Of a DNA stretch of 64,000 nucleotides, positions 1 to 3,287 are shown in pieces. The notes beneath the pieces were generated by a model that was not told where the DNA came from, made no database searches, and was given only the letters and a program-made list of their open reading frames with translations. The translations under genes were made by a program, and so were the position numbers. Source of the stretch: Candidatus Enterousia sp. (GTDB taxonomy: Bacteria; Pseudomonadota; Alphaproteobacteria; Rs-D84); contig JAZLAZ010000020.1 of the NCBI GenBank assembly GCA_045613445.1, positions 74,433 to 138,432 of the forward strand, read 5' to 3'. Every line of letters starts with the position of its first letter. Position 1 is the stretch's first letter.

Positions 1-1290
1 GCACCATATGTTCGTGTTGATAACTTGTCATATGCAGATGTTAAAAATGCAATGCAGACATTGATATTTAACTGCGCTGTGCCTTGTCGTTGGGGTACAC
101 AAACACCATTTATCAACTTTACATTTGACTGGACATGCCCAACTGATTTGAAACCACAACGTCCATTTATTGGTAAAAAGCAGGCTGACTTTACATATGG
201 TGACTTGCAAGCAGAAATGGATATGATAAATAAAGCCTTCTTAGAGGTTATGACCGAAGGCGATGCACTGGGGCGTCCGTTTACATTCCCAATTCCAACA
301 TATAATATCACACCTGATTTTCCATGGAATCATCCAAATGTAAAACCATTGTTTGATTTGGCGGCAAAATACGGTATTCCAAATTTCCAGAATTTCTTAA
401 ATTCTGATTTGAATCCAACAGATGTACGTTCAATGTGCTGTCGTTTGCGCTTGGATGTGCGTGAATTGTTAAAACGCGGTGGTGGATTGTTCGGTTCTGC
501 GGAAAAGACTGGGTCAATCGGTGTCGTTACAATCAACTTGTCAAGATTGGGGTATGTGCATCGTGGTAACCGCGAAGGTCTGTTTACAGAATTGAAACGG
601 TTGCTGAATATTGCACGCGATACATTGGAAATCAAGCGTGATATTATTTCCAAGAATATGGAACGTGGCCTGTATCCATTTACAAAACGTTACCTTGGTG
701 ATTGGAACCATCACTTTTCAACCATTGGTGTAAATGGTGCCAATGAAATGGTTCGTAATTTTACAGGGGACAAAGAAAACATTGCAACACCAATGGGTAA
801 AAAGTTGGTTTTGGATGTAATGGACTTTATCCGCGAAAATCTGGCAACTTTCCAAGAACAAACAGGAAATCTGTATAATTTGGAAGCGACCCCAGCCGAA
901 GGTTGTTCATATCGCTTTGCAAAGACAGATGTTAAAAATTTCCCAGACATTATCACTGCTGGAACAAAGGATGCGCCATATTACACAAATTCAACTCAGT
1001 TGCCTGTAAGCTATACAGACGATCCATTTGTTGCGTTGGAACACCAAGAAGAGTTACAGCGTAAATATACAGGCGGTACAATGTTGCACTTGTATATGGG
1101 TGAACCTGTATCCAGTGGCGATGCGGCACAAAAAATTGTGCGTACGATATTTGAAAATTACAAGGTGCCATATATGACACTGACACCAACATTTTCAATC
1201 TGTCCAAAGCATGGTTATCTGCCAGGTAAACATGAATTCTGTCCAAAGTGCGATGCAGAAAATGCCGCAAATCAAGACACACAAGAATAA
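1..1290 (+). CDS. nrdD: anaerobic ribonucleoside-triphosphate reductase NrdD, large piece (5' end cut by window; ends before glycyl-radical loop)
   Basis: Frame 1 is open from base 1. Translation is NrdD-like (GGTMLHLYMGE; C-terminal ribbon ICPKHGYLPGKHEFCPKCD). TAA at 1288-1290. Confidence 0.9.
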   Translation, partial: APYVRVDNLSYADVKNAMQTLIFNCAVPCRWGTQTPFINFTFDWTCPTDLKPQRPFIGKKQADFTYGDLQAEMDMINKAFLEVMTEGDALGRPFTFPIPTYNITPDFPWNHPNVKPLFDLAAKYGIPNFQNFLNSDLNPTDVRSMCCRLRLDVRELLKRGGGLFGSAEKTGSIGVVTINLSRLGYVHRGNREGLFTELKRLLNIARDTLEIKRDIISKNMERGLYPFTKRYLGDWNHHFSTIGVNGANEMVRNFTGDKENIATPMGKKLVLDVMDFIRENLATFQEQTGNLYNLEATPAEGCSYRFAKTDVKNFPDIITAGTKDAPYYTNSTQLPVSYTDDPFVALEHQEELQRKYTGGTMLHLYMGEPVSSGDAAQKIVRTIFENYKVPYMTLTPTFSICPKHGYLPGKHEFCPKCDAENAANQDTQE

Positions 1291-1336
1291 ACAAATAACA
1301 AATCAAAATTGTCAATCTAGTTAGGGAGGATTAAAC

Positions 1337-1519
1337 ATGACAAACAATGCACACAGAACACCTTGCGAAGTTTTTTCAAGATCAATGGGTTTCATCAGAC
1401 CTGTATCAAACTTTAATATTGGTAAGTATTCTGAATTCTGTGAACGTAAAACATTTACCGAAGCAAACAGTTTGTCAGCGGGCGCCCGTCACTATGAATT
1501 ATTAAAACGTGCGGCATAG
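1337..1519 (+). CDS. stand-alone NrdD glycyl-radical peptide (60 aa)
   Basis: SD AGGGAGGA at 1323-1330, 6 nt before the ATG. EVFSRSMGFIRPVSNFNIGKYSEFCERK matches the NrdD C-terminal radical loop SRxxG(Y/F)xRPV..N.GK..E...R. Different frame from the large ORF. Confidence 0.7.
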   Translation: MTNNAHRTPCEVFSRSMGFIRPVSNFNIGKYSEFCERKTFTEANSLSAGARHYELLKRAA

Positions 1520-2225
1520 TAAAATGCGTGAAGTTCAAATTGGGGGATTGGTTCCGTTCACCACAATCGACTATCCCGGGAAACTGTCAGCGGTTTTATT
1601 CTTGGTTGGTTGTCCATTACGGTGTGCATATTGTTCCAATCCTCATTTATTATCTGTGGGGGATGGTGAATATGACCCTGCGCGTATGTTTGAATGGCTA
1701 CAAAAACGCGTTGGAAAATTGGAAGCGATTGTATTTTCTGGTGGCGAAGCATTAATGCAAGGCGATATTGCGATTGAATATATGCGTCGTGTGCGCGATT
1801 TGGGTTTCAAGATTGGTTTGCATACAAATGGGTTCTATCCTGATTTGTTAAAGCGTGCGTCGGACATTGTTGATTGGATTGGGCTGGATTTCAAGGCAAT
1901 ACGTGAAAAATATCCTGATTTAACTGGTCAACATATCGCATACGATAATATGATGCGTTCGTTGGATGTATGGCTGGATACAGGCAAAGAATTCGAAGTT
2001 CGTATCACATGCGACCCACGATATATATCTGTTGATGATTTATATGAAATCGCAGATATCTTAGCGGGCAGGGGGGTAAAGAATATCGCAGTTCAAAAGT
2101 ATATTCCACACTTTGAAGACGAAGATAACAAAACCACAGATGCCATGCGAAATCAGTTCTTTAATGATTATGATTTGCGCGACAAATTAAATTCAATGTT
2201 TGAATCTGTTATATGGCGCGAATAG
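1509..2225 (+). CDS. nrdG: anaerobic RNR activating enzyme (radical SAM)
   Basis: CPLRCAYCSNP radical-SAM CxxxCxxC motif near the N-terminus, directly after nrdD. Start is GTG 1509 or ATG 1524. Confidence 0.85.
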   Translation: MRHSKMREVQIGGLVPFTTIDYPGKLSAVLFLVGCPLRCAYCSNPHLLSVGDGEYDPARMFEWLQKRVGKLEAIVFSGGEALMQGDIAIEYMRRVRDLGFKIGLHTNGFYPDLLKRASDIVDWIGLDFKAIREKYPDLTGQHIAYDNMMRSLDVWLDTGKEFEVRITCDPRYISVDDLYEIADILAGRGVKNIAVQKYIPHFEDEDNKTTDAMRNQFFNDYDLRDKLNSMFESVIWRE

Positions 2226-2238
2226 TTTTTTCAGGAAG

Positions 2239-2267
2239 CAAACACCCCCATTTGGGGGTGTTTTTTA
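2239..2267. terminator. bidirectional intrinsic terminator between nrdG and metK
   Basis: aaACACCCCCAtttGGGGGTGtttttt. The T-tract contains the metK stop codon. Confidence 0.75.
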
Positions 2268-3287
2268 TTTGTTAGCAACTTTTAATGACTGTAATCCTTG
2301 TGCACACAATTTTGTGTATATGGGTTTGTCCAACCCCAAGAATTTTATTAATTCACGTGGTGGATGAATACAGAACAAATCGCGTTCTGTTATAACACCG
2401 TTACGTATGGTTTTTATCAGCCCACTGGGCAACAACTTTTGCCCAATACAAGATGACAAATATACCCAACATTCATCGTTGCGCCCCAGATTTTCCAGTG
2501 CTAAATATCGTGCATACATATTCAGTGTTAAATCTGCCTTGGTTGCATCTTTGGTCCATGGCGAACCACCGCCAATTGGTGATGCGGTTGAATAAAAATC
2601 GCACGCTAATTTGCGACCTGTTACGCCACAATCTGCGATTGATGAATGATATGTGTAAATGCCGGTTCCATTAACAATAATGTCTTCTGGTGTTTGCCCC
2701 AGTGTATCAATGATAAACCGATGCAAATCTTGATGCTTTAACATTGGAATTGCAACAATTGCAGTCTTTATTTTTCCATTTTCATCAATTGTAATCTGTG
2801 TCTTGATGTCCAACCCTAAATTGTCAGAGCTGCGTGCCATTTCATACAACGCGCGATTTAATTTGCGTGCCAGATATAATTCCAGATTGATGTTGTCTGG
2901 GCCATGACACGCGTATCCAACGAATACACCTTGGTCGCCCCAAGCACCTGATTCAACACCGCGATTTATATCTGGTGATTGTACACCGATAAGATTGATG
3001 ACATTTACTTTGCTGGTATTAATGGCATAATCACCCCAAACAGATGAATATCGACCATCATATCCGATTTCACGTAACGCAGATTTAACATATTCGCATA
3101 CGTTTGACAGGTCCACATTACCTGTGATTTCACCGCCAAGTATAACAGTGTTATCTTTGACCATAACTTCGACTGCATATTTGACAGAATTGTCCATTTC
3201 AATCATGCGATCCAAGATATAAGATGAAATATAATCGGAAATTTTATCAGGGTGTCCCAGCGACACCGCTTCTGCTGTTTTTAACAT
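2265..3287 (-). CDS. metK: S-adenosylmethionine synthetase, short divergent form (340 aa)
   Basis: GHPDK, GAWGDQGVFVGYA, DIKTQIT, GVTGRK and GGGSPWTKDATKADL correspond to canonical MetK motifs. Confidence 0.8.
   Translation of the reverse strand: MLKTAEAVSLGHPDKISDYISSYILDRMIEMDNSVKYAVEVMVKDNTVILGGEITGNVDLSNVCEYVKSALREIGYDGRYSSVWGDYAINTSKVNVINLIGVQSPDINRGVESGAWGDQGVFVGYACHGPDNINLELYLARKLNRALYEMARSSDNLGLDIKTQITIDENGKIKTAIVAIPMLKHQDLHRFIIDTLGQTPEDIIVNGTGIYTYHSSIADCGVTGRKLACDFYSTASPIGGGSPWTKDATKADLTLNMYARYLALENLGRNDECWVYLSSCIGQKLLPSGLIKTIRNGVITERDLFCIHPPRELIKFLGLDKPIYTKLCAQGLQSLKVANK

Follow-up and report, generated by a model that had tools for sequence, protein, structure and literature searches.

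A probable two-chain class III ribonucleotide reductase in Candidatus Enterousia, with its glycyl-radical loop encoded by a separate 60-residue gene

In the literature consulted, class III (anaerobic) ribonucleotide reductase (RNR) is described as one catalytic chain, NrdD, whose C-terminal radical domain must swing out to its activase, and the locus described here raises the question of whether an nrdD reading frame that closes before the radical site, followed by a short second frame, encodes a working enzyme in two pieces or a broken gene. The locus lies at the start of a 64,000-nucleotide stretch, called the window below, which covers positions 74,433 to 138,432 of the forward strand of contig JAZLAZ010000020.1 in the assembly GCA_045613445.1 (contig C20 of the source genome, G000, in our numbering). 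This genome is a metagenome-assembled draft of 27 contigs, estimated to be 95% complete, and belongs to Candidatus Enterousia (order Rs-D84, Alphaproteobacteria), a lineage of uncultured gut bacteria whose genomes are smaller than about 1 Mb (PMC12306168; also record titles). A first-pass annotation, made from the sequence alone, had proposed a functional two-piece enzyme rather than a random frameshift, and the conservation of the arrangement, the pattern of frame offsets, purifying selection and the finding of this locus as the sole RNR all speak for that proposal. With a probability that we put at roughly 0.85, the locus encodes an obligate two-chain class III RNR.

The nrdD gene begins at window position -743, hence outside the window, and its product has 677 residues. 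In this full-length body, an ATP-cone occupies residues 23-111 and the NRDD domain residues 136-669, the latter matching positions 1-531 of the 562 positions of the Pfam profile with 564.7 bits against a cut-off of 26.2, which assigns the protein to the NrdD family. The part within the window still matches Pfam NRDD at 4e-128 (profile 116-531/562) and the NCBIfam model NF006126 with 731 bits (cut-off 548; 1e-219), that profile being reached up to position 651 of 684. The finger-loop cysteine motif expected of a class III enzyme is present as MCCR, one of the motif classes (MGCR or MCCR) defined in PMC9669993. The Zn ribbon aligns to the C..H...C..C of T. maritima NrdD (4COI), and all four ligands (C, H, C, C) are contained in the body. 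Just past this ribbon, about 12 variable residues after CPKC, the reading frame closes at TAA 1288-1290, as had been claimed for the large open reading frame (ORF), while T. maritima NrdD aligns up to its CPVCG and then runs on for 42 more residues. When the entire 677-residue sequence was read, no R..G[YFW] motif was found anywhere in it, in agreement with the first-pass statement that RxxG[YF] is missing from the large ORF; the motif is provided in trans only, as RSMGF on the separate 60-residue protein.

The stretch that the body lacks is encoded by the next frame. A 46-nt spacer with a stop in the NrdD frame, a change of frame and a Shine-Dalgarno sequence (SD) with a 6-nt distance to the start codon are all present in the sequence as had been described, and neither a terminator nor significant RNA structure (z = -0.5) was found in this spacer. 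The 60-residue product corresponds to positions 532-562 of the 562 positions of the NRDD profile, precisely the missing stretch, which bears out its earlier assignment as the radical loop; the glycine of its radical site RSMGF is G18 (codon 1388-1390). Since the two ORFs match contiguous parts of the NRDD profile, 1-531 and 532-562, they are adjoining parts of one enzyme, and since Pfam NRDD is matched by the small protein and Pfam Gly_radical is not, it belongs to the NrdD family and not to the pyruvate formate-lyase (PFL) family. A phmmer search of the 60-residue protein against the sequences of the PDB gave no match. Cys10 of the small protein was considered as a fourth Zn ligand and rejected as unnecessary, because CPKH...CPKC of the body covers the full C/H/C/C set of T. 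maritima NrdD. The dedicated radical-SAM activase of class III enzymes, NrdG, is encoded immediately downstream, without an SD of its own. The small ORF had been said to abut or overlap nrdG; the abutment stands, with 4 nt between the stop and the ATG at 1524, a start that agrees with the NrdG2 model and with relatives, whereas an overlap would require an unlikely GTG at 1509. Judging from this layout (Table 1), the body gene, the small gene and nrdG are co-transcribed, and nrdG is translationally coupled to the small gene, which has its own strong ribosome-binding site.

Table 1. Positions of the features of the nrdD, small-subunit and nrdG locus within the window
Feature	Position	Strand	Basis and remarks
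nrdD large subunit, C-terminal 429 of 677 codons	1..1290	+	Pfam NRDD, NF006126
Finger-loop motif MCCR	433..444	+	sequence; residues 393-396 of the full protein; double-cysteine type with methionine
Zn ribbon CPKH-x9-CPKC, entirely within the large subunit	1201..1251	+	sequence
A-rich intergenic spacer, 46 nt	1291..1336	+	TAG in the NrdD frame at 1318-1320
Shine-Dalgarno AGGGAGGA	1323..1330	+	followed by 6-nt TTAAAC before ATG 1337
Small subunit gene, 60 residues	1337..1519	+	glycyl-radical loop; stop TAG 1517-1519; +1 frame
nrdG activase (radical SAM)	1524..2225	+	TIGR02495 NrdG2, 175.6 bits (cut-off 131)
Intrinsic terminator closing the nrdD large subunit / small subunit / nrdG operon	2240..2263	+	10-bp stem, 6 GC pairs, T run

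The same arrangement recurs throughout the relatives. The small ORF was found in 30 of 40 relatives, always within an open frame of 61-122 codons, and in each of these 30 loci body, stop, spacer, GGAG-type SD, ATG and small ORF follow one another, with nrdG downstream in 26, namely those in which the nrdG query matched. Three congeners gave no match to the small ORF; in two of them nrdD is cut by the end of a contig and in the third no nrdD was found. Among further species-level genomes of Candidatus Enterousia, the split is present in 80 of 80, with the SD present and the ATG kept in all of them, a spacer of 30-56 nt and a gap of 2-11 nt between the small ORF and nrdG, so that the comparison of stop, spacer and SD across related genomes suggested by the first-pass annotation came out in favour of the split. 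The offset of the small ORF relative to the frame of the body is 0, 1 or 2 in 31, 26 and 23 of these species, respectively, and the in-frame spacers hold one to five stops. Because the frame offsets are random, the small ORF must be translated on its own, by independent initiation, and the conservation across 80 species together with this offset pattern excludes assembly error and any recoding mechanism that works in a fixed frame. Altogether, the split layout was seen in more than 110 independently assembled genomes, and its recurrence in 30 of 30 loci and 80 of 80 species-level genomes goes well past what chance would give. Among the relatives examined in the genus and the order, no continuous nrdD ORF of this type was found; in the order, every NRDD of this type either stops at profile position 529-534 or extends to 562 only if stops are read through, and the single contiguous NrdD (G027) is of a different, distant type.

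Some individual relatives depart from the common layout. In one genome of the same order (G025, locus L029, 1077-1497) the body and the small gene are separated by a further ORF, about 130 codons long and preceded by an SD of its own. Another genome of the order (G034) has a second NRDD match in a 1193-codon open frame on contig C62, in which profile positions 250 and 275 flank a gap that possibly marks an intein or an insertion, as well as a second stand-alone small gene on another contig (C21). An Enterousia-type split nrdD, with a small protein 89% identical, was also found on a contig labelled Bacteroides fragilis (L109, CAVGNU010000006.1), which is probably a mislabelled bin.

Selection on the three genes was measured as pairwise ratios of nonsynonymous to synonymous substitution rates (dN/dS; Nei-Gojobori, NG86) over 22 species, and, with synonymous sites nearly saturated (pS ~0.66), the values were 0.04 for the body, 0.12 for nrdG and 0.13 for the small ORF, the last being the measurement proposed at first pass and indicating purifying selection. 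Within the small ORF, the ratio pN/pS was 0.145 in the core (residues 7-40) and 0.27 in the tail (41-60), and it rose to 0.93, a neutral value, in the first six codons; this neutral head fits the expectation for a former linker. Positions G18, G29, K30, E33 and R37 of the small protein are invariant, and R7, C10, R15, R21, P22, N27 and F40 are each kept in 90% or more of the small-protein family. The source genome holds one NRDD locus, one NrdG and a single copy of the small gene; no PFL-type glycyl radical enzyme was found in it, and no class I/II RNR (PF02867) was found in it or in 24 congeners. The two-piece enzyme is the only RNR found in this lineage, and for this reason it is probably essential for DNA synthesis in Candidatus Enterousia.

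Contiguous homologues locate the cut. Their join reads ...CPTCDEEAKAAGRYDPDNRQACEVWTRVMGY...; it is ...SICPHHGYLAGEQRFCPTCDEEAKAAGRYDPDNRQACEVWTRVMGYHRPV... in the relative G272 and ...CEKCDDEIRAQKGLPMDAHLPDDQRQKCEVWTRVMGY... in G237, and the link in an outgroup is short (CPHCGAKTQVWTRVMGY). Aligned in this way, as had been suggested, to contiguous NrdDs, the split falls between the Zn ribbon and the radical loop, in a linker that varies naturally. For a structural view, AlphaFold2 was applied to a read-through fusion from a natural in-frame relative (L047), one TAA being read as Q, with an alignment of 143 sequences. The model has a mean predicted local distance difference test score (pLDDT) of 80.5 and a predicted template modelling score of 0.74; the linker (residues 686-697) lies below pLDDT 50, and the part corresponding to the small subunit (701-740) reaches 80-88 and forms a hairpin (706-711, 714-717) that bears the glycine at the tip and leads into two helices, the tail helix being less certain. 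A Foldseek search with this model returned NrdD structures first (9D3X, 8P23, 4U3E and 1HK8; target TM 0.64-0.77).

By homology with single-chain NrdD, assembly, activation and catalysis would proceed as follows. The 677-residue body would supply the ATP-cone, the catalytic barrel with its MCCR finger loop and the Zn ribbon, and the separately translated 60-residue protein would supply G18, the glycine to be converted to the glycyl radical. The beta-hairpin of the small protein is expected to dock into the barrel beside the finger-loop cysteines, NrdG together with S-adenosylmethionine (SAM) would abstract the C-alpha hydrogen of G18 while the peptide is either free or bound, and catalysis would thereafter run as in single-chain NrdD. 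A few points weigh against this explanation. Production of the two proteins and their assembly are predicted from the genes. The L047 model is a forced single chain whose alignment includes contiguous NrdDs, and it thus speaks for compatibility, not for binding. Moreover, Candidatus Enterousia has been reported to be without nucleotide biosynthesis (PMC12306168), and deoxynucleoside salvage may be conceivable for these uncultured organisms. Even with possible salvage, decay of the locus is unlikely because the nrdD body, the small gene and nrdG are under strong purifying selection.

The detached small gene extends far beyond the order. A word-based search gave stand-alone homologues in 440 clusters at 90% identity, of which the best 120 are 57-92 residues long, and exhaustive HMMER searching among 1.84 billion representatives yielded 1052 matches; the best 150 of these measure 47-121 residues, with a methionine start in 146 of 148 and RxxG[YFW] in 144. 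Free-standing small proteins homologous to a glycyl-radical domain, as in GrcA/YfiD, are hence present here for NrdD. Of 401 evenly sampled alphaproteobacterial genomes, 48 matched, with 31 short frames (53-128 codons, from many families), 16 long frames and one ambiguous case, and the order body, small gene, nrdG recurs at loci of other alphaproteobacterial families. When the best 120 homologues of a contiguous Holosporales-type NrdD are considered, 46 of them terminate 10-25 residues after CPxCD. Contigs labelled Olsenella sp. encode a 672-residue body, a 65-residue ORF (…ERQPCEVWTRVMGYYRPV…) and then an activase, and RefSeq contains 63-residue entries named "anaerobic ribonucleoside-triphosphate reductase" from cultured Undibacterium, a carrier with the accession WP_186883868.1. 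Four genomes of other alphaproteobacterial families (G057, G231, G042, G353) carry 3-5 copies of the stand-alone small gene each, and at two loci of multi-copy genomes (L036, L041) no NrdD body was found within 1.5 kb of the small gene. In a maximum-likelihood tree of the bodies, computed on the part ahead of the radical loop, 31 split and three contiguous bodies form a clade (support 100/100), all sister lineages are contiguous, and the split bodies of phages form one of the two basal branches of this clade. The contiguous NrdDs L164 and L178 (f31, Holosporales-like) and L165 (f193) have long linkers and are nested inside the otherwise split clade, as would fit genes that were split once and then fused again. 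A single old split followed by re-fusions possibly accounts for the tree and agrees with its well-supported branches, but several independent splits may equally do so. The split is old, because it is common to many alphaproteobacterial families, to phages and to at least one actinobacterial group.

Relatives of the small protein are also encoded at 41 loci in IMG/VR. At 13 of them a body without an ATP-cone precedes a small frame of 77-96 codons, and at 25 no body lies within 4 kb of the small gene; the order of large subunit, small subunit and activase is found on phage contigs too. Five of these 25 are complete genomes of 37-46 kb with terminal repeats, in which the sole NRDD match covers profile positions 530-562. 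Of the lone phage proteins, 18 show 74-91% identity to Enterousia cores as against 56-71% to other groups, a ranking biased by search patterns that were built from Enterousia-like sequences. The phage small proteins fall into phrog_4132 of PHROGs, annotated "unknown function". A tail-fibre-like gene of 625 codons in the source genome (G000:C6:34478-35140) shares 68-76% nucleotide identity over 350-650 nt with loci of lone-small-gene phages, and this shared sequence links such phages to Enterousia; it suggests a related prophage in the source genome.

The split could be apparent only, with a single chain being made by stop-codon read-through, frameshifting or ribosomal bypass of the spacer. Bypass is known in gene 60 of phage T4, and the two ORFs are in the same frame in 31 of the 80 species. 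However, the three offsets are roughly equally frequent, in-frame spacers contain up to five stops of both TAA and TAG type, SD and ATG are lost in none of the 80 species, the opening six codons of the small ORF change at a neutral rate, significant RNA structure is absent from the spacer and a further ORF separates the two pieces in one relative, and we regard a single chain as very improbable. The chances are even slimmer that the chains are rejoined by a split intein or that the RNA is spliced at a group I intron, as in T4 nrdD; although these are published causes of split nrdD in phages (PMC3653736), spacers of 30-56 nt are too short for an intron, and the body tail of about 12 variable residues and the 6-9 unconstrained residues at the head of the small protein leave no room for intein halves. 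Hardly any weight can be given, in the same way, to assembly error or a decaying pseudogene: the source genome is a fragmented metagenome-assembled draft, but the structure is repeated in all the independent assemblies counted above, dN/dS lies between 0.04 and 0.13, and the locus is the only RNR found in its genome.

A further reading extends the two-chain explanation and is compatible with it. Here the small protein would be a consumable, exchangeable radical cartridge, made in excess, charged by NrdG off the enzyme and replaced after oxygen cleavage at the glycine, so that the 77-kDa body would be spared and phages could bring a cartridge of their own, raising the supply of dNTPs or re-arming the host enzyme. 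The strong SD of the small gene in all 80 species and its tight coupling to nrdG, the five complete phage genomes with a small gene and no NrdD body, the closeness of the 18 phage proteins to Enterousia cores, the tail-fibre-like sequence shared with the source genome and the multiple small-gene copies in some alphaproteobacterial genomes would all fit, and there is a precedent in GrcA for PFL, a 2026 review calling the question open for other enzymes (PMC13450708). Against this, the small gene is single-copy in the source genome, the phage similarity ranking carries the bias stated above, and exchange, excess and repair are drawn from the GrcA analogy and the lone-gene phages only; we therefore hold this extension to be tentative and rather doubtful.

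Compared with known systems, the two-chain enzyme shares most of its parts with canonical single-chain NrdD and NrdG (T. maritima, 4COI/4U3E; P. copri, 8P23; S. thermophilus, 9D3X; phage T4, 1HK8; NF006126), including the ATP-cone, barrel, MCCR loop, Zn ribbon, radical-loop sequence and adjacent NrdG, and differs in having the radical loop on a polypeptide of its own, which has a dedicated ribosome-binding site. The likeness to GrcA/YfiD of E. coli PFL, drawn at first pass, holds in part: in both cases a small free-standing homologue of the C-terminal radical domain acts, or here would act, in trans with a large body, and the small protein is presumably a substrate of the same activase. Yet PFL keeps its own radical domain, which GrcA replaces after damage, whereas the Enterousia body has none, and the notion of a spare for an enzyme with its own radical domain does not carry over; as the sole carrier of the glycine in a genome with no second NrdD, the small protein is the regular subunit. 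Split class II NrdJa/NrdJb (Pseudomonas aeruginosa; Thermus phage phiYS40) likewise consists of two consecutive ORFs with a C-terminal module on the second chain, but it belongs to another RNR class, and NrdJb is a large folded domain (IscU-like plus zinc finger) rather than a 60-residue radical carrier. The comparison with split phage RNR genes, also made earlier, is apt, since NrdA of Aeromonas phage Aeh1 and the split phage nrdD genes (T4 I-TevII, phiAS4) illustrate that an RNR in pieces can still work. Mobile elements gave rise to those splits, or else they are recent, isolated events, published cases of split nrdD being intron or intein interruptions or recent fragmentations such as that of phiAS4 (PMC3653736), whereas the present one lacks a mobile element, always falls at one site ahead of the radical loop and has been kept across families and phyla.

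Several features at the edges of the locus and of its proteins may be recorded. Immediately upstream of the nrdD SD, about 25-40 nt before the nrdD start (window ~-785 to -765; G000:C20 ~73650-73670), CACTATATGTTGTG resembles an NrdR box. Cysteine-rich C-termini occur in some of the bodies at L010, L012, L021, L022 and L030 (CQCKCGDHE, KKCMCCDDC) and cysteine-rich tails in some of the small proteins at L023-L029 (CLDCHCE, CCCE, CGCS); they could be metal-binding or redox-active. The small proteins of Enterousia all end in K/R/M-A/V-A, mostly ...LLKRAA (window 1496-1516), and AA is the terminus of 12 and A that of 30 among 150 representatives of the small-protein family, as compared with 6 and 28, respectively, of 761 long ORFs of the genome; some contiguous relatives likewise terminate in ...RRAA. 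These Ala-Ala ends are reminiscent of C-terminal degrons of the ssrA/ClpX type. Convergent with nrdG lies a short, divergent metK (2265-3287, minus strand; 340 residues; TIGR01034, 166.7 bits against a cut-off of 309.4), which was considered as a partner of nrdG and rejected, the adjacency being found in only 6 of 80 related species and probably coincidental.

In the literature searched, no description of a detached radical domain in NrdD was found, and according to a 2026 review spare-part proteins are known only for formate lyases, with other glycyl radical enzymes open (PMC13450708). For annotation, the split has direct consequences: small genes of this kind are called "hypothetical" or, at 63 residues, given the name of the whole reductase, and truncated bodies could pass for pseudogenes. 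Phage genomes with the small piece alone point to a new kind of auxiliary gene, and the cartridge, if true, would be the first spare-part-like system outside PFL. A two-chain RNR would be of interest to specialists in RNRs and glycyl radical enzymes alike, and a separate 7-kDa radical domain would offer a ready system in which to study recognition by NrdG, docking and exchange after oxygen damage.

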